A stretch of DNA of 64,000 nucleotides, taken from NCBI GenBank assembly GCA_965248925.1, contig CBDFLE010000006.1, positions 1,600,001 through 1,664,000 of the forward strand, read 5' to 3'. The notes beneath the pieces are model-generated. The model was not told where the DNA came from. It saw nothing but the letters and a program-made list of their open reading frames with translations, and did not search any database. Made by a program: the position numbers and the translations under genes. This document shows, one piece after another, positions 24,468-62,430 of the stretch; position 1 is the stretch's first letter; each line of letters starts with the position of its first letter. The DNA comes from Candidatus Multivoradales bacterium. GTDB taxonomy: Bacteria > Acidobacteriota > Thermoanaerobaculia > Multivoradales > J023.

Positions 24468-27400
24468 ATGACCATCGCAGTGGTGGCCGAGAAGCCCTCC
24501 GTGGCGCGCGATATCGCCCGCGTCCTGGGAGCCAGCCAGAAGGGCAAGGGAATACTCTCTGGCTCCGGCTACGTCGTCACCTGGGCCATCGGGCACCTGG
24601 TGACCCTGCCCCAGCCGCACGAGATCGAAGCAGCCTGGAAGGGCTGGCGCCGCGACACCTTGCCGATGCTGCCCCAGCGCTGGCCGCTGCAAGTGAGCCA
24701 CCGCACTCGCGAGCAATTTCGCGCTGTCAAGAAAACGATCTGCGCGGCGGACGTCGAGCAGGTCATCTGCGCCACCGATGCAGGCCGTGAAGGCGAGCTG
24801 ATCTTCCGCTACATCTACGAAGCCGCCCGCTGCCGCAAGCCGGTGCAGCGGCTGTGGATTTCGTCATTGACCCCCACCGCTATCCGCCGAGGCTTCGCCG
24901 AGCTGCGCGCCGGCGATCAGTTTGACGGCTTGGCCGACGCCGCCCGCGGTCGCAGCCAGGCGGACTGGCTGGTAGGGATGAATCTGTCGCGGGCGATCAG
25001 TCTGGTGGCCGACGAAACCCTCTCGGTCGGTCGGGTGCAGACCCCCACCCTGGCGCTGCTGGTAGAGCGCGAGCTAGCCATCCGCAACTTTGTGCCCGAG
25101 GACTATCAGGAAGTGGTCGCCAGCTTTGCGCCCACCACCAACGCAGCCACTGCCAAAGACCCCGCAGCCGCTTATCAAGGCACCTGGTTCAACGGCGACA
25201 AGCCCGCCAGCGGCAAACCCTCAGCCAAGGCCAGCCGGCTGCCGGCCGATGGCCAGCAAGCACAGCGGATCGTCGACCGACTGGCTAACGGCGAAGCGAA
25301 AATCGCCAGCGTCGAGCGCAAGACCCGCCGCCGCCCAGCTCCCTTGCTCTACGACCTCACCGAGCTACAGCGGCACGCCAACCGGCTCTTCGGCTGGAGC
25401 GCCAAGAAGACCCTCGGTATCGCCCAGAGTCTCTACGAAAGCAAGAAGCTGATCAGCTACCCGCGCACCGACAGCCGCCATCTGAGTCGCGATGTCGCCG
25501 CCGAGCTACCGCGAATCGTCGCCGCCATCGCCGGCCCTTATGCTGAGCTGATGGCTCCTGGCAGCGGTGAGAAACCCCTCGGACGGCGTTTCGTCGACGA
25601 GGCTCGGGTCGCCGACCATCACGCCATCCTACCCACCGCGACCGCGGCAAAAAGCGCCCGGCCGAATGCCGACCAAGCCAAGCTCTACGACCTGATCTGC
25701 CGCCGCCTGCTCTGTGCCTGGCATGGACCGCAAGTCAGCGCCATCGTCGAAGTGGTCACCACCGTCGACAGCAGCCCAGAGACCGCCGAGCAGGGAGACG
25801 AAGTCGTCGATCACTTTTTTAGCAGCGGCACCAGCATTCTCGAGCAAGGCTGGACCGTGCTCGATATCAGAGTACGCAAGAAGATAAAGAAAGAACAGCC
25901 GGTTGTTCTGCCAGCTGAACTTGCTCAAGGTCTAGCGCGTCAGGTCAGCGCCGTCCAAGCCATCGAGAAAACCACTCGCCCGCCGCGCCGCCACACCGAC
26001 GCCACCCTGCTGACCGCGATGGAGACCGCTGGTCGCAGCCTCGACGACGAAGAACTCTCCGCGGCGATGAAAGAACGCGGCCTGGGCACCCCCGCCACCC
26101 GTGCCGAGACCCTCGAAACCTTGTTGCGCCGTGACTACGCCCAACGGCAGCAAAAAGCTCTCATCGCCACCGACAAAGGCATCGCCTTGATCGACCGGGT
26201 CCATCCGAAAGTCAAAAGCCCGGTGATGACCGGCGAATGGGAGGCCGAACTCAAACGGGTCGAGCGCGGCGAGCTTGAACTGAAAACCTTTCTGGCACGG
26301 ATCGAAACCTACGTCCGCGAAGTGGTGCGCAGCATGCTCGCCCACGGCCATCGCCCTCTCGGCCAAGCGACCGGCAGACCCCGACCCCAGGTGGTTGAGA
26401 CCAGCCACCAAGCAAAGAGCGAGGCTCGGAAGCCCGCAGGTGGGCCGGTGTTCACCGGCAGACAGCCCTTCCCTTCCAGGCATTTATCGCCGACGCCCAC
26501 CGCTGCATCCAGTAGGCCAGCGCCAGCCAACGAGATTCCGGCGCCGAGCCTCACCACCCAGCCATCGTCCCCCAGTGAACAGAGCTGGCGCCCCACTGCG
26601 GCCTTGGCCGCCGACCAACTAGGTCAGCTGCTCACTCAGCCATTTGGTTTTGACGGTTTCCGCCCCTACCAAGAGCCGGTCTGCCGCGCCGTCGCCAGCG
26701 GCCAAGACGTCCTCTTGGTGATGCCGACCGGCGCTGGTAAATCCCTCTGCTACCAGCTCCCCGGCCTGGCCCGCGCCGGCACTACGCTAGTGATCTCGCC
26801 GTTGATCGCGCTGATGGAAGATCAGGTGGCCAAGCTGCAAGCGGTGGGCATCCGCGCCGAGCGCATCCACTCCGGCCGCGGCCGGGGGGCTTCGCGCCAG
26901 GCCTGCCGGGACTACCTCGATGGCCGCTTGGATTTTCTCTTTATCGCTCCCGAACGACTCGGCGTGCGCGGCTTCCCCGAACTGCTGGCGCGGCGCAAGC
27001 CAAGCCTGGTGGCGGTCGACGAGGCGCATTGCATCTCGCAGTGGGGCCACGACTTCCGGCCCGACTATCGGCGCCTGGGTGAACGTCTGCCTGAGCTGCG
27101 GCCTGCGCCGGTGGTCGCCCTCACCGCCACCGCCACCCCAGTGGTGCAAGACGACATCGCCAAACAACTCGGCCTGAGCAGCGGCCAGCGATTCATCCAC
27201 GGTTTTCGCCGCACTAACATCGCCATCGAGAGCGTCGAGCTGCGTCCCTCGGAGCGGCGGGGGGCGGTTCGCCGTTTGCTCGCCAACGACTCCAACCGAC
27301 CGGCGATCGTCTACGCCCCGACCCGCAAAGAAGCCGAGGGGTTGGGAGCCGAGCTGGCCGAACTGCTGCCGGCCAGCGCCTACCACGCCGGCCTGAGCGC

Positions 27401-28619
27401 CAGCCACCGCGACCGCGTGCAGAGCGGCTTCCTGAGCGGCGAGCTGGAAGTGGTCGTCGCCACCATCGCCTTCGGCATGGGTATAGACAAAGCTAATGTG
27501 CGCACCGTCATCCACACCGCCTTGCCCGGCAGCCTGGAGTCTTACTATCAGGAAATCGGCCGCGCTGGCCGCGACGGTCTACCCTCCCGCGCCGCCCTAC
27601 TGTGGGGCTATAGCGACCGCCGCACGCACCAGTTCTTTTTTGATCGCGATTACCCCGAGGTGGCGGTTCTGCAAGGCTTACTCGGCGCCCTCGGCCAGGC
27701 CACCCTCGGCCGCGAGGCGCTGGCCGTCCGCAGCGGCCTCGGCGAGGACACCTTCGAGCGCGCCTTGGAGAAGTTGTGGATCCACGGCGGGGTCGAAATA
27801 ACTACCGAGGACAGCGTCCGGCGTAGCAACAGCACCCGTTCCGGCGCCAGCTGGCAGCTAGCCTACGAGGAGCAACGGCAGCAAAAACTGGCTCAATTGG
27901 GCCAGATCACCCGCTTCGCCCAAGCCCGCCAATGCCGCATGCTGGTGTTGGTGCGCCACTTTGGCGATCAAGAAGACAGCGGCGAGCGCTGTGACGTTTG
28001 TGACCACTGCGCGCCGGAGAACTGCCAGGCGCTGGCCTTTCGCCCGCCCACCGGCACCGAGGTCGGCGCGATGGAGCGCATCTTGGCCTCCCTGCGCCAG
28101 CGTGACAGCCAAGGAACAGCCCAGCTGTTTCGCGCCAGCTGTGAACCCCGAGGTCTCGACCGGCGCACTTTCGACACCCTGCTCGCCGGTCTGGTGCGAG
28201 CCGAGCTGGTGGCAGTCAGCGAAGAGTCCTTCAACAAGGACGGCCGCACCATCCACTTCCAACGCGCCTCCCTGACCGCCGACGGCTACCGCGATCTACC
28301 GATGCTCGGCGCACGGGTGCGGATGGTCGACGAGGTGCCGTCCAGCGGTCGATCCAAACGCCGCCAGCGACCCTCCAAGGCGGCGGCAGACCTCGCCGCC
28401 AAAGCTCCCACGCAGTTGGTGGCCAAGCTCGAGCACTGGCGCAAGGGCGAGTCGCGGCAGCGCGGTGTGCCAGCTTTCAGAATCCTCCGCCAAGCGACCC
28501 TGCGAGCCATTGCCGCCGCGCGGCCTAGCGATCAGCAACAACTGGGGGCGGTGCGTGGCGTCGGTCCCGCCTTGCTGCAACGCTATGGCGATGAGCTGCT
28601 GCGCTTGCTGCGCCCATGA
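24468..28619 (+). CDS. DNA topoisomerase III - RecQ helicase - HRDC fusion
   Basis: [45 protein letters not shown]; Pro-rich linker; [53 protein letters not shown], Zn motif [10 protein letters not shown]-terminal HRDC; one 1383-aa ORF. Confidence 0.95.
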
Positions 28620-39471: not shown

Positions 39472-40449
39472 ATGAGCTTTTTCGCCTTCCTTTTTGGATT
39501 GCTCGTCTATGTCGCCCTGGGCATTGGAGCGCGAGGTTTCTTCACCGTGCGGCCCAATGAACGGGCAGTAAAAACCTCTTTTGGCCGCGCCGAAAGACTT
39601 GAGGGAGCACCTAGCGGGGCTCCTGATCTCAGCGCTGAAGAGCAGGACCGCTACCGCTATCCGCAGCTCCGCGTCATCCCACCGGGCGGTCCCTATTTGA
39701 AGATGCCCTGGCAGCAGGTACATAAAGTGTCGGTGGCCACCCAAGCGGTCGATCTGGTGTGGGATCCGACCAAATCGCAGAACACCATCGAATCGGTGAC
39801 CAAGGACAACCTGACCACCGGCGTCAACGGCCAGCTGCGCTACCGGGTGAGCGAGAGCAACCTCTATCCCTACCTCTTTGGCGTCACCAGCCCGCTGGAA
39901 CATGTCATGGGCTTCTTCGTCTCGGTGCTGCGCGAAAGAATCTCCAATTTCGTCGACCCAAAAGGCGCCAGCCTGATCAGCGACAGCGAACTCGACGGCG
40001 ATGAGCAGCCGGCGGCGGAGCTTTCAGAAGGGGTATCGATCAACGATCTACGCAAGAACCTGCCATTGCTCAATCAGTACATGGAACAGCAATGTCATTC
40101 GACGGCCGGACGCTATGGCATCGAGCTAGACGCCGCCCTGGTGACCGAGATCGATCCGCCGTCTGAGGTCGACCACGCCCTATCGGCGATCAACTCGACC
40201 CGCAATCAGGTGGCGGCGGACATCTCCACTGCCCGCGCCGACGCCGAGCAGCAGATCACCCTGAGTGAGCGCGCCGTCGAGATCGCCCAAAACAACGCCG
40301 AGGCCGAGGTCGCGCCGCTGCGCGAGTTAGCTACCATCTTGTCGAAGATTAAAGATCAGGGGGGCTCGGCAGCGTTGGGAGCCTACCTGCGCAACATGCG
40401 CGTGCCCCTCTTCGAACGTGCCAACCGCGTCGTCATTACCAGCGACTGA
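39472..40449 (+). CDS. SPFH/band-7 protein
   Basis: N-terminal TM, FFTVRPNERAVKTSFG, TKDN, YGIELD..VTEIDPP, coiled-coil tail. Confidence 0.85.
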   Translation: MSFFAFLFGLLVYVALGIGARGFFTVRPNERAVKTSFGRAERLEGAPSGAPDLSAEEQDRYRYPQLRVIPPGGPYLKMPWQQVHKVSVATQAVDLVWDPTKSQNTIESVTKDNLTTGVNGQLRYRVSESNLYPYLFGVTSPLEHVMGFFVSVLRERISNFVDPKGASLISDSELDGDEQPAAELSEGVSINDLRKNLPLLNQYMEQQCHSTAGRYGIELDAALVTEIDPPSEVDHALSAINSTRNQVAADISTARADAEQQITLSERAVEIAQNNAEAEVAPLRELATILSKIKDQGGSAALGAYLRNMRVPLFERANRVVITSD

Positions 40450-40462
40450 GGGGACAATAACC

Positions 40463-41359
40463 ATGCCAATCTTCCCCGTAATATCATTCCTTTTCGGCCT
40501 GCTCTTGATCCCCATCCTGCTGCGCTTGGCGCGGCTGTTCGGCCTCTACACCATCGTCGGCGAATGCGAATCACAGGTCTTCACCCTCTTCGGCAAAGTT
40601 CTGGGAGTGCTCGACGAGCCCGGCCTGAGCTTTCCCGTCGCCCGCTTCGGCCCAAAAGCGTTCTTGATCCCCTTCTTCGGCCGCCGCCAAGTGGTATCGA
40701 CCGCGCTGCGCCAGCACTACCTGCGCAGCCAGATGGTCAATTCCGAAGAAGGCACGCCGATGGGCGTCGGCATCTGGTACGAGATGAGCGTCAACGACCC
40801 GACTTCCTATCTGTTCACCAACGCCAACCCAGAAGGATCCCTCCAAGCCAACGTCACCAGCTCGACCATCTCGACCCTGTCCAATCTGCAGATGGAAGAG
40901 ATGCTTGAGAATCGCCACAGTTTGAGCCGCACGGTGCGCGCGGCGGTCTCCCCCTTGAGCGAAAAGTGGGGCTATCAGCTGGGCTCGGTTTACATCCGCA
41001 AAGTCGCCTTCACCGACCGCTCGATGGTCGAGAACATCACCGAAAAAGTAGTCAAACGCCTGGTCCAGGTAACCAGCGCGATGAAACAAGACGGAGACAA
41101 CCGGGTCGGCCTGATCCAGAGTGAAACCGCCAAGAAAGTCTCGCAAAGACTCGCCGAAGCCGCCGCCGCCCGCCCGGCGGTGGTCGGCGCAACCTTGAAC
41201 GAAATCGGCCGCCAGGACACCGAGATTCTCAGCTCAGTGATCGAAGTGATGGAAACCGACAAGCTGCTGGCCTCGGGCGCACGGGTTGATGTTCTACCCA
41301 AAGATGCCACCGTGCTGATGCAGCTGGGAGAAGGGGCACCGCCGCTGATCGGGAGCTAA
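40463..41359 (+). CDS. Second SPFH/band-7 protein
   Basis: TM, LFGKVLGVLDEPGL, WGYQLGSVYIRKV. Confidence 0.8.
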   Translation: MPIFPVISFLFGLLLIPILLRLARLFGLYTIVGECESQVFTLFGKVLGVLDEPGLSFPVARFGPKAFLIPFFGRRQVVSTALRQHYLRSQMVNSEEGTPMGVGIWYEMSVNDPTSYLFTNANPEGSLQANVTSSTISTLSNLQMEEMLENRHSLSRTVRAAVSPLSEKWGYQLGSVYIRKVAFTDRSMVENITEKVVKRLVQVTSAMKQDGDNRVGLIQSETAKKVSQRLAEAAAARPAVVGATLNEIGRQDTEILSSVIEVMETDKLLASGARVDVLPKDATVLMQLGEGAPPLIGS

Positions 41360-41764: not shown

Positions 41765-44643
41765 GTGCAATATCGCCCATCCAAGCCACAAGCTCCCCTG
41801 TCCGAATTCGATCGTTACTGCCTGACCTTGCGTCTGGCGGCGCCGATAGTCCTGCCCTTTGAGCATGGCGGCGTGCTGCGTGGCTTGCTGTCGCGGGCGC
41901 TGAGCCAGCACCAACTGCCGGACGGACTGATCCTCTTTGCCGCCGAGTCGGGGCGGGTTCACTTCCGCGCCGGCGATCGCTATCGCTGGGTGGTCACTCT
42001 GGTGGGCGAGGCCCGTGGCCAGGCGGAGACACTGCTGGCGGGTATCGCCGCGGTGGGTGGCCGGGTCGACAAGGGGCCGGCACCGGTCTTGGGTGGTAAT
42101 TTCGTGCTCGAGGCCACCGACTTGCTGCCCGCCGTCGATCTCGACGCCGAGTTGGCCCAGCTCGGCGAGCGAGACGAGATCGTGCTGCTGCTGCGCTCGC
42201 CCCTCTGCCTGCCGCGGCCAAAGACTCCCCAGGGCGCACGAGGCGGCATCTTCGACCAACACTGCTTCCCGGCCGCGGCTTTCTTGGATCGACTTTGGCG
42301 CCGCCGCTTCTTCCTCCAGCACAGCCGCTATCCGCGGCCCGAAGAGCGGTCGACCCGGGCCGCGGTAGGAGAGGGTGCGACGGCCCGACCCCACCACTTG
42401 CTGGCGGTTGATCTGCCGGTTCGGGGCACCGGTGAGCACAAGCCTTCTTACAACCTTGCAGGGGTGCGCGGCCAAGTGGTCTTCGGCGGGCTGAGCGAGG
42501 AAGAGCGCTCAGGCCTGGTCGCCGGGATGTTCCTGCACCTCGGCAAGAGCGTTAACTTTGGCTTTGGCCGCTACACCCTCGAGGGCACCCTCGACCATGG
42601 CGACAAGCATTTTCTACCCAGCACCTCGCTGCTGGCTCACGCCGCCGACTCGGAGGTGCTCGAGGACGCCGTCGCCCATCTGCGCCAGAACCTGAAAACC
42701 AAGCATCAGCTGCCGGGCGATGAGGATGAGCCGATCCCCGGCCGGCTGATCGTCGATCTCTCGCGGCGGCTGCTCGACGGCAGCTACCAGCCCGGCCTGC
42801 TCAGCGGCTTCGTGCTGCCCAAGAAGGACGGCGGCGTGCGCCCTCTGGCGGTCCCCAGCGTGCGCGACCGGGTGGCGCAGCGGGCGGCGATCGAGGTCCT
42901 GGCACCGATCATCGATGGTTTGCTCGAGGATTCCTCCTTCGGCTACCGCCGGGGGTTTTCGCGGCAGGGCGCGGCGCGGGCCATAGAACGGGCCTATGCC
43001 GAGGGCTACCGCTATGTCCTCGACGCGGACATCCACGCCTTCTTCGATCAGGTCGATTGGTCGCTGCTCTTCGCCAAGCTCGAAGCGCTCTTCCCCCAGG
43101 AGCCGCTGGTGGAGCTGCTGCGGCAGTGGATCCAAGCGCCGGTGATCTTCGAGGGTCGGCGCATTCGCCGGCAACGGGGCCTGCCCCAAGGCAGCCCCAT
43201 CTCCCCTCTGCTGGCCAATCTCTATCTTGACCAGCTCGACGAGGCGTTGATCGACCAGGGCTTCAGGCTGGTGCGTTTTGCCGACGATTTCGTCGTCTTG
43301 ACCAAGGATCTCGACCGGGCACGAGCCGCCAAGCTCGCCACCGAGCGGGTGCTGCGAGAGCTGCGCCTGTCGCTCAACCAAGACGAGACCGCCATTCGTG
43401 CCATCGACGACGGCTTCAGCTACCTCGGCTATCTCTTCGTCCGCTCGATGGTGATCGAGAAACGCTCATCGTCGAGTGCCGACGGTTCGGCAGCTGAAGT
43501 GTCCCTCGACGCTGACGACGTGCCGGCTGGATCGTGGCTTGCCGGGGTGTCCCTGCGACGAATCGAGGAGCTGCTCTCCGGGCGTCGCGGGCCCAAGTCG
43601 GTGGCCGGGTTCGAACGAGTTCCTCTGGCCACCGGCGCCGCCCTCGACGCCGGCCGTTGGCCCCTCTATGTGGTGGGGCATGACACCCGCTTGTTCTTGC
43701 GGCGACGAACCGTGGTGCTGAAGCGCCCGGAACAGGAGCCCGCCGAGCTACCCATCGAGGCGCTTTCCCACGTCGTCTTTTGGGGCCGGGTGCGGGCGAC
43801 GGTACCCGTCTTGCGCGGCCTCGCACGGGCCGGTGTGCCGGCCTACTTCTGCCAGGTCGACGGCACCCTCGAAGCGGTCTTTGGTCCCTATGAAGAAAAG
43901 TGGCCGAATTGGCTGGCGCAGGCCCGCGCCGCCGACAACCCGGAGCTCTGCCTGCGTTTTGCCATGGCCACCATCGAAGCGCGGTTGCGCAACTTGCGGT
44001 CATGGCGGTGCGCTTTGGCTGGGGCGGCGGTTCGGCGCTCGCCGCTCAGCTGCGCCAGCTGGCGCGGGAAACTGTCAACAAGCAAAGCCTCGACTCGGTC
44101 CGTGGCCTTGAGGGTCGCGGCATGGCTTTGGTATTTGGAGCATTGGCGGATGCGCTCGACTCCGAGTGGGGTTTCACCGGTCGTCACCGCCGACCGCCGC
44201 CGGATCCGGTCAACGCGATGCTCTCCTTCGGCTACAGCTTGCTTTACAACCACACTGCCACGGCCTTGACCGAGGCTGGCCTCAGTCCGCGGATCGGCTT
44301 GATGCACGAACCCCGCGGCGCCCATCTCGCCTTGGCATCCGATCTGATGGAAGAAGTCCGCCACCTGGTCGAGTCGTTGGTCTGGACATTGATCCGCCGC
44401 CGGCAGGTCAAGCCGACAGATTTTCGCCCGTCGGCAGATGGCTACTACCCGGCGCTGCTGACCCAGGAGGCGCGGCGGATGTTTCTCGACGCCTTCGAGC
44501 GCCGGATGCTGACCCAGCTGACCCCGGAAAAGGGCGAAGAACCGATCAGCTACCGCCAGCTGCTGGTGCGCCAAGCCAGGCAGGTCAGGGAGCTGGTGAG
44601 CGGGCGTCAAGACAGCTATCATCCTCTGGTGATCCGTGGCTAG
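41765..44643 (+). CDS. cas1: Cas6-RT-Cas1 fusion, frameshifted at about 43995
   Basis: Cas6 G-rich loop LHLGKSVNFGFGRY; RT PKKDGGVRPLAVP, DADIHAFFD, GLPQGSPISPLLANLYL, RFADD; Cas1 N-terminus in ORF 41765, with catalytic part (GLEG, PPPDPVNAMLSFGY, GLMH, LASDLMEE) in the frame of ORF 43900-44643. Confidence 0.92.
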
Positions 44644-44974
44644 GAGGCAGAATCTTGGCTGCCGCGGGCGAGTTGTCAAGGGTAGAGCAAGGCGTCTGGC
44701 TAACGCTACGGTGTTTCCGGGGATCTCGAGGGAGAATCTGCCAAACTGGCACACGTAAGGCTTAAAGCTCTTGAAACAAACAACTTAGATGGGTCGAGGG
44801 GAGAAAGATCAGACCGAGATCCCCTGAGAGACGATAAAATCAATGATATCAATGGGATACAAGACTTCGGAAAACACGAAACCGGCACAATCGAGGGTCC
44901 AGCGCCGCATTTTGACGAGATCCCCTGAGAGCCGCCTGCAAGTCCTTTGCTTTCAAGGGCCTGGAAAGGGTAGA
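44644..44974 (+). promoter_or_regulatory. CRISPR leader
   Basis: AT-richer non-coding stretch between the cas1 stop and the first, non-degenerate repeat. Confidence 0.75.
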
Positions 44975-46839
44975 GTGGGAATCGACCTAGCCGCTCAAGG
45001 CATTGCGACCATAAATATTCGGACAGGATACACCAAGACATTTTGTGAGTGTGGGAATCGACCTAGCCGCTCAAGGCATTGCGACTTTCTGCCCCCTCGT
45101 GTCGTTATAGTCGGCGATGCCCACAGTGGGAATCGACCTAGCCGCTCAAGGCATTGCGACTTTCAACGCACGAACCATCTGATCAATGACCCAATCGTGG
45201 GAATCGACCTAGCCGCTCAAGGCATTGCGACTTCGCAAACGTTGTAGAAAAAAGTATGAGCAAGCTCGTGTGGGAATCGACCTAGCCGCTCAAGGCATTG
45301 CGACCTTTCATCCGAAAAGTTCTCAGTGTTCAGTAGGACGTCGCGTGGGAATCGACCTAGCCGCTCAAGGCATTGCGACTTCATTAAAATTTGGGTCAGT
45401 CGCTGTTCTGTACCAGTGGGAATCGACCTAGCCGCTCAAGGCACTGCGACTTTCACCAAGCGTGACGAGCCCGACAACCATGAGAACAAGTGGGAATCGA
45501 CCTAGCCGCTCAAGGCATTGCGACTTTCTAGAATTGGTTGAGAAAACTCTAGTGCAACTCTAAGGTGGGAATCGACCTAGCCGCTCAAGGCATTGCGACA
45601 CACGATACCGTACATTACCAGAAACCACGACAGTTTGTCGGTGGGAATCGACCTAGCCGCTCAAGGCATTGCGACCTTTCTGAGACCTTGCGAAGATTAG
45701 AGAAGAGCAAAGTAGTGGGAATCGACCTAGCCGCTCAAGGCATTGCGACTTTCTGCAATAAATTGACTAATCTCCAGAGCGTCATGCAAGTGGGAATCGA
45801 CCTAGCCGCTCAAGGCATTGCGACTTCGCATCTTCCGAAACTCGCCTGGAAAGTCATGCTGCTTGTGGGAATCGACCTAGCCGCTCAAGGCATTGCGACT
45901 TCAAATATGCTGGATGGACATGTTGCCTCACAAAGAAGCTGTGGGAATCGACCTAGCCGCTCAAGGCATTGCGACTTTGAGAAACGTGGTTTTCCCATTT
46001 TTATGGAGTACGAGTGGGAATCGACCTAGCCGCTCAAGGCATTGCGACTTTGAGAAGTAGTTCAGCAAGGCACAGTAGCCGCTGTGGGAATCGACCTAGC
46101 CGCTCAAGGCATTGCGACCAAACGATAGAAGAAGGTGTGCCCGAGTTCATGAGCAACCGGTGGGAATCGACCTAGCCGCTCAAGGCATTGCGACTTCTCC
46201 ATCCACAAACCTAGCAAAGGGTGTGCGGTCGAAATGTGGGAATCGACCTAGCCGCTCAAGGCATTGCGACTTCGTAGTTGGCGCATACCAGAACCACACT
46301 GCGTTGAAGTGGGAATCGACCTAGCCGCTCAAGGCATTGCGACTTTCCATCAGGGCGTTGTTGTTACTCTGAGTCATAAGTGGGAATCGACCTAGCCGCT
46401 CAAGGCATTGCGACTTTCCGATAGTCATCATCCCGCACCAGTCCAGTTTCATCGTGGGAATCGACCTAGCCGCTCAAGGCATTGCGACTTCTATAGACTT
46501 TGTTCCACCCATGTTCGTTTCTCTCGAGTGGGAATCGACCTAGCCGCTCAAGGCATTGCGACTTTAGCAACGTAGCATCCTTGATCTTGTCGAGCGGCAG
46601 AGTGGGAATCGACCTAGCCGCTCAAGGCATTGCGACCTCAAGGTCTTCGTTGGTGACCCCTGCAATGCTCGACTCTTGTGGGAATCGACCTAGCCGCTCA
46701 AGGCATTGCGACTTCCCCTCCATATCCACGAACGACCTGTTCTTGCCGTAAGTGGGAATCGACCTAGCCGCTCAAGGCATTGCGTCACAGAGTTCGTTGG
46801 CATCGCCGTGTGAGAATCGACCTAGCCGCTCAAGGCATT
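44975..46839 (+). CRISPR. CRISPR array: 26 repeats (25 full, 1 truncated), 25 spacers, type III-like
   Basis: 35-bp repeat GTGGGAATCGACCTAGCCGCTCAAGGCATTGCGAC; GCC/GGC stem followed by the 8-nt handle ATTGCGAC; spacers 35-41 bp, last 23 bp; variants at repeats 7, 25 and 26 put the trailer on the right. Confidence 0.98.
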
Positions 46840-48163
46840 GGATCTTCGTCTCCCTGTGTGGGTAAATAGCGCCGTGGCCGACAAATGGATATGCTTGCTG
46901 GATGCGAGACAAAGACCTGTAGGCGAAGATCTTGGGCGTCGAATCGCCGTGGCGAGTCACAGAAGTAGACCTGGCCTTGGATGAAGGTGAGGTTTTGGTG
47001 CACTTGGTCAACGGCGAGAAGCGCCCACCCTGTCCTGAATGCGGCAAGCCGTGCAGCGACTACGACACCCGTTCTCGTCGCTGGCGGCACCTGGATACCT
47101 GCCAGTACCGGACGGTGCTTTTGGCCCAAGTGCCTCGGATCGAGTGCCCGGATCATGGTGTGCTCCAGGTCCGTGTCCCGTGGAGTGAGCCCGGCTCTCG
47201 CTTTACGGCGCTGTTCGAGGCGCTGGTGATCGATTGGCTCCAGGAAGCAAGCGTCTCGGCCGTCGCTCGGCTGGTGGGCCTGGACTGGGGCGAAGTGGAT
47301 CGAATTATGGCCCGATCCGTGGCCAGGGGTCTGGCTCTGCGAGAGCGCAAGCTCCCTCAGCGTCTCGGTGTGGATGAGACCTCGTTCCAGAAGCGCCACG
47401 AATACGTGACCGTGGTCTGTGACTAGCAGAGAGGTGTCGTTGTGCATGTAGCCGACGGTCGGGGCCGAGACTGCCTCGACGATTTCTACAAGGGATTCGA
47501 AGAGAAAGAAAGGAAAGCTGTCGAGTCTGTGTCTATGGACATGTGGCCAGCGTACATCGGCTCGACCGAGCAGTACATTCCCGGTGCCGAGACGAAGATC
47601 GCCTTCGACAAGTTCCATGTAGCCCAGCACCTGTCCAAAGCCGTGGACAAGATTCGCCGACAGGAGAACAAGATCCTCGTCAGCCAAGGTGATGAGTTCC
47701 TGAAAGGCAGCAAGTACCTCTGGCTCCAGAACCCTGACAACATGAGCGATGAGCGCTGGGCGGGCTTTGAGGAACTGCGGGAAAGTAGCCTCAAGACCGC
47801 CCGCGCATGGGCGATCAAAGAACTCGCCATGAGTCTGTGGTACTACGCATACCGGGGCAGTGCTCGCAAAGCCTGGAACAAGTGGTACTCCTGGGCGATC
47901 CGTTCCCAGCTCGAGCCCATCAAGAAGGTTGCGAGGATGGTCAAACGCCACCTGGAGGGTATCCTCACCGCCATCGTGCGCGGCGTCACCAATGCTCGCT
48001 CCGAAGGCATCAACGCGAAGATCCAATGGGTCAAGTACACAGCCAGGGGATGCCGCAACCGGGAGCGCTTCCGCAACGCGATCTACTTCCATCTTGGTGG
48101 TCTTGATCTTTACCCTGAAAGCATCAGGCGGTGATTGCTACCCACACAAAGTATTGTAGCGCC
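46840..48163 (+). mobile_element. ISL3-family insertion sequence
   Basis: Imperfect terminal IRs GGATCTTCGTCTCCCTGTGTGGGTA and revcomp GGCGCTACAATACTTTGTGTGGGTA; no target-site duplication visible. Confidence 0.85.
46902..48134 (+). pseudogene. ISL3 transposase with two in-frame TAG stops
   Basis: MRDKDL*AKILGVESPW..CPECG..RRWRHLD..LGVDETSF..VVCD*..SMDMW..FDKFHV..TNARSEGIN; TAG at 46920 and 47424. Confidence 0.9.
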
Positions 48164-60929: not shown

Positions 60930-61961
60930 CTAGGCATCAATGCTACCTCGCTGGACGAGTTCTTCGCGGCGCCAGGCTCGCGCCTCGGCATGCGCAGTCA
61001 CGGCATAGACAGAGGCATAGCCGGCCTGCAACTGCTGACCGTCGATCAGACCGGCAAGATAAGCGGTCTCGAAACGTCGCCTGGCAGTGGCATAGCGCCG
61101 CCGACGGCGGCGGGATAGCAGCAGCCGGTCGCCGAAGATCCGAAAGCCGAGCAGCGGCAGACCGCGGCAGCTTGGTTGGACCTGCCAGTGTGGCTTGATC
61201 GTCAGGTGCAGAGCCTGATCTGCATGTGCCACGGCCTGCTGAGCCGCCGCCCGCACAACGGCTGGGCTGTTCCCCCAGATCGCCACATCGTCCATGTATC
61301 GCACCATCGCAACACCTTGCCCCTCCAACAGAAGGCGATCGAGGCTTGCCAAGTAGAGGTTGGCGAAGTGCTGCGAAGTCAGCGCGCCGATGGGCAACCC
61401 TCGAAGCCCTTCTCTGGATCCTTGGTCAGTCGCCGGAGATAGATAGCTGGCGATGATCCGGTCGATCAAGTGCAGCGTTGCCGCACCCTTGATACGCCGC
61501 CTGAGCTGGGAGCGCAAGATAGCATGATCGATACTGGCAAAGTAGGCTCGCACGTCGAGCTTGACGAACCAACCATAGCGAGCCGTATGACACTGCGCCC
61601 GCTTTACAGCTGCCAGCGTACCCTTGCCCAGCCGGCAGGCAAATGTATCGTCCACCAGCAGTCGTTCGAGTACCGGGCCTACCCGGGCCATGAGCGCATG
61701 GTGAAGCACTCGCTCGCGAAAACAAGGCGCCTGGATAACTCGCCGCTTGGGATCATGAATGGTGAACGAACGCCTCGATCCGACCCGGACCCGTTGCTCT
61801 AGTATTTCGCGCCCGAGACGTGCCAGCTCTGACAGAAGATTCGCCTCGAAGGCCCGAACCTCCGGCTGCTGGCGCTTGCCCTTGGCGGCACGCCAAAACG
61901 CTGCACCGAGGTGTTCTAGCGAGGCAACATCCTCTAGTTGCACCAGCGCCCGCTTAGTCAT
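60930..61961 (-). CDS. DGR reverse transcriptase
   Basis: DPKRRVIQAPCFRERVLHHAL, FACRLGKG, KLDVRAYFASIDH, GLPIGALTSQHFANLYL (DGR-type GxxxSQ), RYMDD; ATG 61961 after GGAGG. Confidence 0.95.
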   Translation of the reverse strand: MTKRALVQLEDVASLEHLGAAFWRAAKGKRQQPEVRAFEANLLSELARLGREILEQRVRVGSRRSFTIHDPKRRVIQAPCFRERVLHHALMARVGPVLERLLVDDTFACRLGKGTLAAVKRAQCHTARYGWFVKLDVRAYFASIDHAILRSQLRRRIKGAATLHLIDRIIASYLSPATDQGSREGLRGLPIGALTSQHFANLYLASLDRLLLEGQGVAMVRYMDDVAIWGNSPAVVRAAAQQAVAHADQALHLTIKPHWQVQPSCRGLPLLGFRIFGDRLLLSRRRRRRYATARRRFETAYLAGLIDGQQLQAGYASVYAVTAHAEARAWRREELVQRGSIDA

Positions 61962-62430
61962 GCCGCCCCTCCTGGTCCGCGGCTGAATTCCAGGCGGCAC
62001 GCAGAGCCTCCACGAACGCGGCACCGTATTTCTCAGCCCGTTTGGCGCCCACTCCTGCCAATGCTTCCAGCTCACTGGGGGTCTGCATTCGCTGGCGCAC
62101 CATGGCAGCCAACTGCGCATTAGTGAAGACAGAATAGGGTGGTACGCCGTCTCGCTGCGCAAGCTCCTTACGGAGCTTTCTCAGCTCGGCAAAGACAGTG
62201 AAATCTGCGCTCGACAACACTTCTCTATAGTCGATCTTCCCTTTTCTGATCGCCGGAATTGCTGCTGAACTCTCCTGATAATTGATGCATAACGCCCAGA
62301 AAGCAGCCCCATCGCCCACTACTAGATGGCGCTTGACCGACAGCACCCGATGGCTGCCGAGAAAGGCATTCAGCTCCGCCTCGGCGGTATCGGGAGCGAG
62401 CGCCGGCACCCCGAAGAATTTCATCTTCAT
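61954..62430 (-). CDS. HRDC-domain DGR accessory protein
   Basis: ELNAFLGSHRVLSV..FWALCINY; KIDYREVLS..FAELRKLRKELAQRDGVPPYSVFTNAQLAAM..GVGAKRAEKYG; overlaps both the target 2 stop and the RT start. Confidence 0.88.
   Translation of the reverse strand: MKMKFFGVPALAPDTAEAELNAFLGSHRVLSVKRHLVVGDGAAFWALCINYQESSAAIPAIRKGKIDYREVLSSADFTVFAELRKLRKELAQRDGVPPYSVFTNAQLAAMVRQRMQTPSELEALAGVGAKRAEKYGAAFVEALRAAWNSAADQEGRHD

Follow-up and report, generated by a model that had tools for sequence, protein, structure and literature searches.

We analysed a stretch of 64,000 nucleotides (nt), hereafter the window, from Candidatus Multivoradales bacterium, a member of the Acidobacteriota (assembly GCA_965248925.1, contig CBDFLE010000006.1, positions 1,600,001 to 1,664,000). 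The window carries a CRISPR array downstream of a gene in which a reverse transcriptase (RT) is fused to Cas1, and most spacers of this array begin with a short run of T followed by C. The features concerned are listed below, with positions counted from the first letter of the window and protein lengths in amino acids (aa).

44975..46844, plus strand: CRISPR array, 35-nt repeat in 26 copies, with a 5' leader; decay restricted to its 3' repeats, RT-Cas1 gene upstream on the same strand.
45010..46809, plus strand: 25 spacers; the 5' (repeat-proximal) end reads T(2-3)C in 15, CTTTC in 2, TTT(G/A) in 3 and has other starts in 5.
41765..44269, plus strand: RT-Cas1 reading frame 1, 834 aa; N-terminal Cas6-like region, group-II-intron-type RT at aa 330-568, N-terminal part of Cas1 at aa 634-746.
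43900..44643, plus strand: second reading frame with the C-terminal part of Cas1 (Cas1 profile positions 136-325, 1e-46).
44644..44974, plus strand: leader, reaching from the Cas1 end to the first repeat; no cas2.

The array consists of regularly spaced, near-identical repeats and of unique spacers of similar length, no two of which are alike. The consensus is matched exactly by 23 of the 26 repeat copies, two copies have one mismatch and one has four, and it is the last two copies that are degenerate (1 and 4 mismatches). All spacers measure 35-41 nt (24 spacers) except the final one, which has 23 nt, and the G+C content of the spacers is 46% vs. 62% for the window. Because decay is found only in the last two repeats and the RT-Cas1 gene lies upstream on the same strand, we read the array on the plus strand with its leader at the 5' side. 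No other copy of the repeat was found anywhere in the 8.0-Mb genome or in the other genomes of the order (0/299), and a 23-nt piece of it was found in 0 metagenome contigs.

The spacers start in a strongly biased manner. TT opens 18 of the 25 spacers, compared to only 1.5 expected from the T content of the spacer interiors (binomial P = 4e-17; P = 1.5e-16 when tested against the interior TT dinucleotide frequency), and CTTT opens two further spacers. These counts reproduce exactly those of an initial annotation of the window, which had been made from the letters alone. Position 1 is T in 18 spacers, C in 5 and A in 2; position 2 is T in 21, A in 2 and C in 2; and position 3 is T in 13, C in 9 and A in 3. 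Pyrimidines account for 92-96% of the first three positions, T more often than C, and G is absent from all of them (0/75 cells). An opening run of at least three pyrimidines is present in 21 of the 24 full-length spacers, where ~3 would be expected, with run lengths of mostly 3-6. TTC lies inside the first 5 nt of 17/25 spacers (P = 4e-16), and the base following the T run is C in 17/20 cases, G in 2/20 and A in 1/20. The exact motif TT(T)C or CTTTC is found in 17/25 spacers. Hence, the motif TT of the initial annotation is real but too narrow, and is better written as T(2-3)C.

Two further statements of that annotation hold as well. The T's are not part of the repeat, because five spacers (1, 9, 16, 23 and 25) have unrelated starts and the T run elsewhere varies from 2 to 3. 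The opposite end of the spacers shows no equal bias, with only a mild excess of A at the last position (11/25). The observation of a spacer-start bias is thereby confirmed and sharpened.

Some spacers share longer starts. Spacers 14 and 15 (45976-46083) have identical first 8 bases and then diverge, and one 8-mer spacer start is found in four arrays spread over three related genomes (G257, G270, G293), with continuations that differ in every case. Such shared starts might reflect an added or preferred end that at times exceeds 4-5 nt. We also considered whether spacers without the motif are longer. This was seen in the window, where the three spacers without a pyrimidine-run start are all 41 nt compared to 3/21 of the others (P = 0.018), but in none of six other sets, and the idea was dropped.

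That the array is linked to an RT, as the initial annotation had it, is borne out by the gene with Cas6-like, RT and Cas1 regions directly upstream on the same strand. Frame 1 matches RVT_1 at 9e-34 and, in the same frame, covers positions 1-114 of the Cas_Cas1 profile. The match of its N-terminus to PF10040 (Cas6) is weak, at 22 bits vs. a cut-off of 25. Its homologues are proteins of 930-990 aa with Cas6, RT and Cas1 domains, of which the best shares 58% identity and most of those listed carry PF10040. The same three-domain architecture is described for the Cas6-RT-Cas1/Cas2 system of Thiomicrospira (Wang 2021, PMC8102632). In an alignment with the homologues the window protein has the invariant columns R504, D507 and D508 of the RT motif ending in DD; it contains a group-II-intron-like RT with a catalytic DD motif fused upstream of Cas1.

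The Cas1 domain is not covered by a single intact reading frame. Profile positions 1-116 and 136-325 lie in different frames, and a tblastn search with the homologue P0002 gave two pieces in different frames that overlap at ~43957-44131, which places a frameshift inside Cas1. Judging from the sequence, this frameshift would either mark a pseudogene or stem from a faulty assembly. In the stretch from Cas1 to the array (44643-44975), one reading frame contains 5 stop codons. The leader has a 19-nt direct repeat at 44815-44833 and 44916-44934 (95% alike) with an inverted partner at 44711-44728, and these may be candidate sites for leader recognition. Cas2 had no match in the window, and the four Cas2 matches of the genome are all elsewhere. 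Type III effector genes (Cas10, or Cas7/Cas5-type repeat-associated mysterious proteins) were absent among the window open reading frames (ORFs) of at least 150 aa that passed a greedy non-overlap filter. A mobile element directly follows the decayed array end:

46932-47426 and 47442-48134, plus strand: ISL3-family transposase, two ORFs in the same frame.

This insertion probably marks the truncated distal end of the array, and its position suggests that it caused the truncation. With its frameshifted RT-Cas1, the lack of Cas2 and an insertion sequence at its far end, the window module looks decayed.

The genome contains seven further arrays (three of I-C type, one III-B and three with a second RT-linked repeat, RT2), as well as III-D effector genes on the same contig as the window (C6):

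I-C arrays: three, with an I-C-type repeat, beside Cas1/Cas2.
III-B array: one, beside Cas1/Cas2 and Cmr2, with the III-B genes (Cmr2) at C6:4.13 Mb.
RT2 arrays: three, with the second repeat, beside two intact RT-Cas1 genes of the 957-aa class, each with Cas2.
III-D genes: Csx10, Csx7 and a weak Cas10 at C6:288-296 kb, compared to C6:1.645 Mb for the window array.

At C6:283500-313400 (L165, L166), the III-D effector set is flanked by two intact RT-Cas1 + Cas2 modules (C6:284-288 kb and 306-310 kb), which are almost identical and are each provided with an array, and the third array lies beyond them. An oligonucleotide cyclase resembling those of cyclic-oligonucleotide-based antiphage signalling systems (CBASS) and a SAVED-CHAT protein adjoin the III-D effector genes. 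The last 8-mers of the window repeat (RT1) and of the III-D-linked RT2 repeat differ by one base, and the window 8-mer has the form ATTG..AC. We take a final repeat 8-mer of this kind to be the 5' tag of the CRISPR RNA (crRNA), which makes it a putative tag here. The initial annotation called the window array type III. This label agrees with the resemblance of its repeat end to the III-D-linked RT2 repeat, but the window holds no effector or Cas2 and the nearest III-D genes are ~1.34 Mb away; the label follows from the repeat end and a distant locus, and is not shown by the window.

The spacer starts differ markedly among these arrays. TT opens 18/25 spacers in RT1 and 13/33 in RT2, compared to 2/18 in the III-B array as read (0/18 on the other strand) and 14/146 in the I-C arrays. 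Likewise, starts with a run of at least three pyrimidines occur in 21/25, 17/33, 3/18 (5/18 on the other strand) and 25/146 spacers, respectively. Within this genome, the bias goes with RT-Cas1: the RT-linked arrays have it, and the RT-less III-B and I-C arrays lack it. The RT2 arrays have a different repeat and an intact RT-Cas1 with Cas2, and show the same bias; therefore, the bias follows the type of enzyme and not the repeat.

Two other observations concern these additional arrays. In the III-B array (C6:4118000-4119860), the block of spacers 8-12 occurs a second time as spacers 13-17, and spacers 5 and 22 are the same, which points to internal duplication. In the large I-C-type array, spacer 53 matches C5:1725512-1725544 perfectly (33/33), with flanks that are not TTC; these non-TTC flanks may explain why this I-C self-target is tolerated.

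The motif is also found in other phyla. A profile of 24 homologues was used to fetch 80 loci, which contained 46 arrays beside RT-Cas1 relatives. TT opens 133 of the 659 unique spacers of these arrays, compared to 43.6 expected, with a strong excess in L031, L032, L034, L036, L042 and L067. The marked arrays of the relatives start with T(1-3)CT; in L067, for instance, TTCT opens 7/9 spacers. Across all arrays collected, controls included, the start C(0-2)T(1-3)CT is found in 267/1128 spacers vs. 46/1128 at an internal offset, and in other genomes it follows unrelated repeats. The base before the TCT core is T in 108/124 spacers with the core at offset 1, and TT precedes it in 39/53 at offset 2, whereas internal T amounts to 34%. 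The T before the core is thus variable in length, a homopolymer such as tailing gives, unlike the product of sloppy trimming around an encoded motif. In the pooled strong arrays, which were selected for their bias, T makes up 74% of position 1 and A 23% of the last position, and the mark is confined to the 5' end.

Matches of spacers to their own genomes may reveal whether the first bases are encoded in the source. Four such self-matches, from this genome and its relatives, are informative (L042/G301, G293, L031 and spacer 10 of RT2 array c, which is treated further below). In L042/G301 the match is perfect over 38 of 39 positions (2-39), the first T is unencoded, and the crRNA is antisense to a lipoprotein gene. 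A 91% match to this self-protospacer in G379 indicates that its source is a conserved host gene. In the third array of G293, the match runs 33/33 from position 1 and the last 5 nt are unencoded; here the orientation is sense, in a signal-peptide gene. These are the only two self-matches of relatives with a clear gene strand, and in both of them the unmatched bases are at the 3' end of the mRNA-sense strand. The spacer of L031, with a length of 44 nt and without a T start, is fully encoded. A self-match in L034 (97% identity with a 3-nt indel) was set aside as uninformative. Aside from the spacers, a sequence of ~40 nt beside the arrays of G293 (C1/C2) recurs at >25 sites with 85-97% identity, and looks like a dispersed short repeat.

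Spacer acquisition by RT-Cas1 has been studied in Marinomonas mediterranea MMB-1. The RT-Cas1/Cas2 complex of this III-B system adds short 3' DNA tails to RNA protospacers, with A far above G, then C and T, and a pause near 4 nt, and at least two dA are needed for efficient integration of RNA (Mohr 2024, PMC11014452). In vivo, spacers acquired by three RT-Cas1 enzymes mostly carried at least two noncoded junction nucleotides, mostly A, with AG among the enriched first two noncoded bases, whereas RT deletion and three RT-less type III systems gave few noncoded junction nucleotides (PMC11014452). Integration occurred in either orientation, and A was richest next to the RNA (PMC11014452).

Our results resemble this tailing in several respects. 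The published tail preference has its complement in the pyrimidine-only start with T above C, and the run length of 3-6 is in keeping with the published '1 to 6 noncoded nucleotides' and with the pause at about 4 nt. On the strand that would carry the tail, the spacer ends are purine-rich, with A above G, over 1-6 nt. The likeness extends to the locus, where an RT-Cas1 fusion lies beside an array of 35-nt repeats. We consider the chances about even that the T-tract is the complement of a short purine 3' tail, mostly dA, that RT-Cas1 added to RNA protospacers. The initial annotation had proposed capture of RNA ending in AA, start of complementary DNA synthesis opposite AA, or oriented integration. 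These candidates come close to the published 3' tailing by RT-Cas1 (PMC11014452), which the annotation did not name.

Such a tail could be turned into the observed motif as follows. In the two-step integration by Cas1, the 3'-OH of each prespacer strand is linked to the 5' end of one repeat strand, and whichever prespacer strand is joined where the repeat meets the old spacer will form the new spacer's bottom strand. By analogy with Marinomonas, the RT domain would act as a terminal transferase and extend an RNA at its 3' end by a few purines (typically 1-6 nt, mostly dA), and only the tailed 3'-OH would be joinable by Cas1 to the repeat (PMC11014452). A bottom strand ending in ...G-A-A(-A)-3' would then read 5'-T-T(-T)-C on the crRNA-sense strand. 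With the captured RNA and its tail as bottom strand, the crRNA would therefore be antisense to the captured RNA, which would be the only orientation usable by an RNA-targeting effector. The one-sidedness of the motif could come from polarised integration or from the loss of useless sense-oriented spacers. The G before the A's could be the last nucleotide of the RNA or the first one added. RNase Y cuts after G and leaves a 3'-OH, and a full RNase Y is encoded in the genome. Because the local module looks decayed, the scar would record either its past activity or activity in trans of the two intact RT-Cas1/Cas2 modules of the genome.

Studies of other RT-Cas1 enzymes offer further comparison. 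The III-D RT-Cas1 of Vibrio vulnificus YJ016, which has two Cas2, showed an antisense bias without effector, four to five AT-rich positions at the spacer ends and no protospacer adjacent motif (PAM) (González-Delgado 2019, PMC6821258). It is of the same type as the intact RT2 locus of this genome, and polarised integration is suggested by its antisense bias without effector. In contrast to our results, the AT-rich stretch in V. vulnificus is symmetric and a property of the protospacer, whereas the signal here is strong and at the 5' end only. AT-rich spacer ends have also been described for a type VI RT-Cas1 in a 2024 preprint.

Several results weigh against tailing by RT-Cas1 as the origin of the T-tract. 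The A's of the putative tail adjoin the repeat and the signal is one-sided, whereas the Marinomonas system has most A beside the RNA and integrates without orientation. The two data sets also differ in kind: the Marinomonas spacers were acquired in the laboratory, with no fixed sequence reported in the excerpts consulted, and here a native array was read from sequence alone, with a one-sided T(2-3)C. The window's own RT-Cas1 is frameshifted and lacks a Cas2. Many RT-Cas1-linked arrays are unbiased (for instance L035, L037, L049, L068, L069 and L089), and not every RT-Cas1 lineage shows the bias. In the pooled strong arrays, again selected for their bias, TTTT is rare (2 vs. 9.6 expected) and TTCT is frequent (25 vs. 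5.8 expected), so the starts are more sequence-defined than a random purine tail would be.

The protospacers add to these difficulties. None of the 25 window spacers could be assigned a protospacer: a search of their own genome gave only chance matches of 18-20 nt, searches of phage and plasmid collections (E up to 1) and of 299 other genomes of the order gave no match, and neither did a search of IMG/VR with two spacer cores. The only self-match of this genome among its RT arrays, spacer 10 of RT2 array c, is matched at 34/35 positions with its 5' TTC encoded and one of its two final A's unencoded. The relatives contributed little beyond the self-matches given above. Two IMG/VR scans with their spacers were without match, and one metagenome scan matched only the same array in two samples. 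Self-searches with the spacers of L032, both G134 arrays, two of the three G270 arrays and two RT-Cas1-adjacent G293 arrays gave no match. Family and order searches for L042 and G134 yielded, besides G379, array-to-array matches and two weak, chance-like matches. Among 1153 spacers, no useful overlapping spacer pairs were found in RT arrays.

The control loci also tell against a strict dependence on RT. The control set comprised 20 regions around Cmr2 matches in genomes of the same order, 13 of which were widened to up to 60 kb. Four genomes with an RT match in the fetched stretch (G134, G212, G270, G293) formed the RT-near group and eight genomes the no-RT group; G281, with a degraded RT beside Cas1, was set aside. 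In the RT-near group, TT opens 88/216 spacers and the motif 94/216, compared to 2/216 and 8/216 at an internal offset. In the no-RT group, where no RT was found within up to 60 kb, the corresponding numbers are 27/170 and 28/170, compared to 7/170 and 9/170. The two groups differ with odds ratios of 3.6-3.9 and Fisher P of 1e-7 to 1e-8, although these genomes are kin and the P values are overstated. One genome of the no-RT group, G258, has an RT-Cas1 elsewhere. In G257, where an RT-less Cas1 lies between two small arrays, 11/11 spacers open with a pyrimidine run. The initial annotation had regarded the bias as a possible signature of this RT-Cas1, and the same bias in RT-less type III arrays as evidence to the contrary. 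The contrast between RT and RT-less arrays within the genome supports its view, with the own III-B array free of bias; on the other side stands the excess in arrays of relatives with no RT found within up to 60 kb, weaker overall but strong in G257, so that the contrary evidence it named is present in part. The signal in the no-RT arrays might stem from activity in trans, from an RT since lost or from the Cas1 core itself.

An alternative explanation places the cause in the Cas1 core. The Cas1/Cas2 core would favour prespacers with 3' ends reading ...GAA or ...AGAA and join them untrimmed at the spacer side, in which case the motif would be an encoded PAM-like element inside the spacer that sets its orientation. 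We regard this as possible, albeit on the unlikely side. In type I adaptation, the last repeat base is PAM-derived in I-E systems, and I-C systems have a TTC PAM. It is established knowledge that type I systems place the PAM side of the spacer at the very end where our motif lies, beside the 3' end of the repeat, and in both cases a short sequence at that end is tied to orientation. The motif also has a defined sequence, T(2-3)C in this array and T(1-3)CT in the relatives; the genomic match of RT2 array c spacer 10 encodes the TTC; and the Cas1 part of the window protein scores best against I-C, I-D and Cas4-Cas1 type models. The motif with the RT-less Cas1 of G257 in two small arrays, and the weak excess in the other arrays with no RT nearby, would fit as well. 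Yet a type I PAM is target-encoded, at a fixed offset outside the spacer and trimmed away except for one base in I-E, whereas the motif here is inside the spacer, probably unencoded, and shifted in offset by a T homopolymer of 1-3. Variable trimming would leave random bases upstream of the core, where T is found almost always (108/124; TT in 39/53), and the first T is unencoded in the L042 self-match. A preference of the integrase alone also sits poorly with the absence of the motif from the I-C and III-B arrays of this genome and with its higher frequency where an RT is near (94/216 vs. 28/170). Finally, the consulted excerpts on the V. vulnificus III-D and type VI RT-Cas1 enzymes report no PAM. 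The more specific idea that the motif is the TTC PAM of the co-resident I-C system was rejected: the motif is missing from the I-C arrays, its T's form a homopolymer, and no TTC flanks the I-C self-target.

Selection after an unbiased acquisition, in which crRNAs that are U-rich after the 8-nt tag would work better or be less self-toxic in a type III effector, appears very unlikely to us. The signal is indeed one-sided and in the part of the crRNA beside the tag, and weakly persists in Cmr-linked arrays with no RT found nearby, but the genome's own III-B array is unbiased (0-2/18), and selection for base-pairing strength alone would not be expected to yield a defined T(1-3)C(T) whose homopolymer varies in length. 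The RT-Cas1 studies cited here do not, in the excerpts consulted, describe a requirement for U-rich starts, and the ends of type III guides are argued to tolerate noncoded bases (Mohr 2024, PMC11014452). An artefact of the repeat boundary, with a true unit longer than 35 nt or a slipped second cut that copies the first bases of the older spacer, is hardly credible. It would explain why the motif directly abuts the repeat and is common to most units; it is contradicted by the T run of 2-3, by the five unrelated spacer starts and by the occurrence of the same motif after unrelated repeats in other genomes. The order of the spacers contradicts duplication by slippage, since the motif-bearing spacer 8 lies on the leader side of the motif-less spacer 9 and its start is no copy of the older spacer.

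Tailing by RT-Cas1 also has a stronger version, which we consider improbable. The RT-Cas1 of this clade would add a sequence-defined tail, ...G-A(2-3) here and A-G-A(1-3) in the relatives, specified by the protein or by a built-in template. Such a tail would serve as a 'synthetic PAM' that marks orientation: the tailed end would always be joined at the spacer side, and every RNA-derived spacer would be antisense.

Some other genes of the window deserve mention. Two adjoining SPFH/Band 7 genes (39472-41359, plus strand) lie directly upstream of RT-Cas1. An ORF of 1383 aa (24468-28619, plus strand) is a topoisomerase-RecQ fusion with Toprim, type IA topoisomerase, DEAD/RecQ helicase, RecQ zinc-binding and HRDC domains. 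A stand-alone reverse transcriptase ORF of 410 aa (60930-62162, minus strand; RVT_1 6.5e-17) is situated between two genes with formylglycine-generating-enzyme/sulfatase-modifying domains, and could be a defence RT or a retron-like element.

Our literature searches, which did not cover supplements, found no defined start motif in native RT-linked arrays. In the literature searched, neither the strict one-sidedness nor the defined sequence, T(2-3)C here and T(1-3)CT across phyla, is described. The best-supported mechanism is the known tailing route of RT-Cas1, read here in a native array, for and against which we would give roughly equal weight. The orientation of RNA-derived spacers is an open point, as the best-studied enzyme integrates without orientation and another shows an unexplained antisense bias. 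If true, a one-sided, sequence-defined mark that recurs across phyla would offer a sequence read-out of spacers acquired via the RT route in any genome. It would point to a built-in polarity signal, and would be of use for RNA-recording tools that depend on insertion in a set orientation. Should the targets themselves encode the mark, adaptation by RT-Cas1 would have its first PAM-like element.

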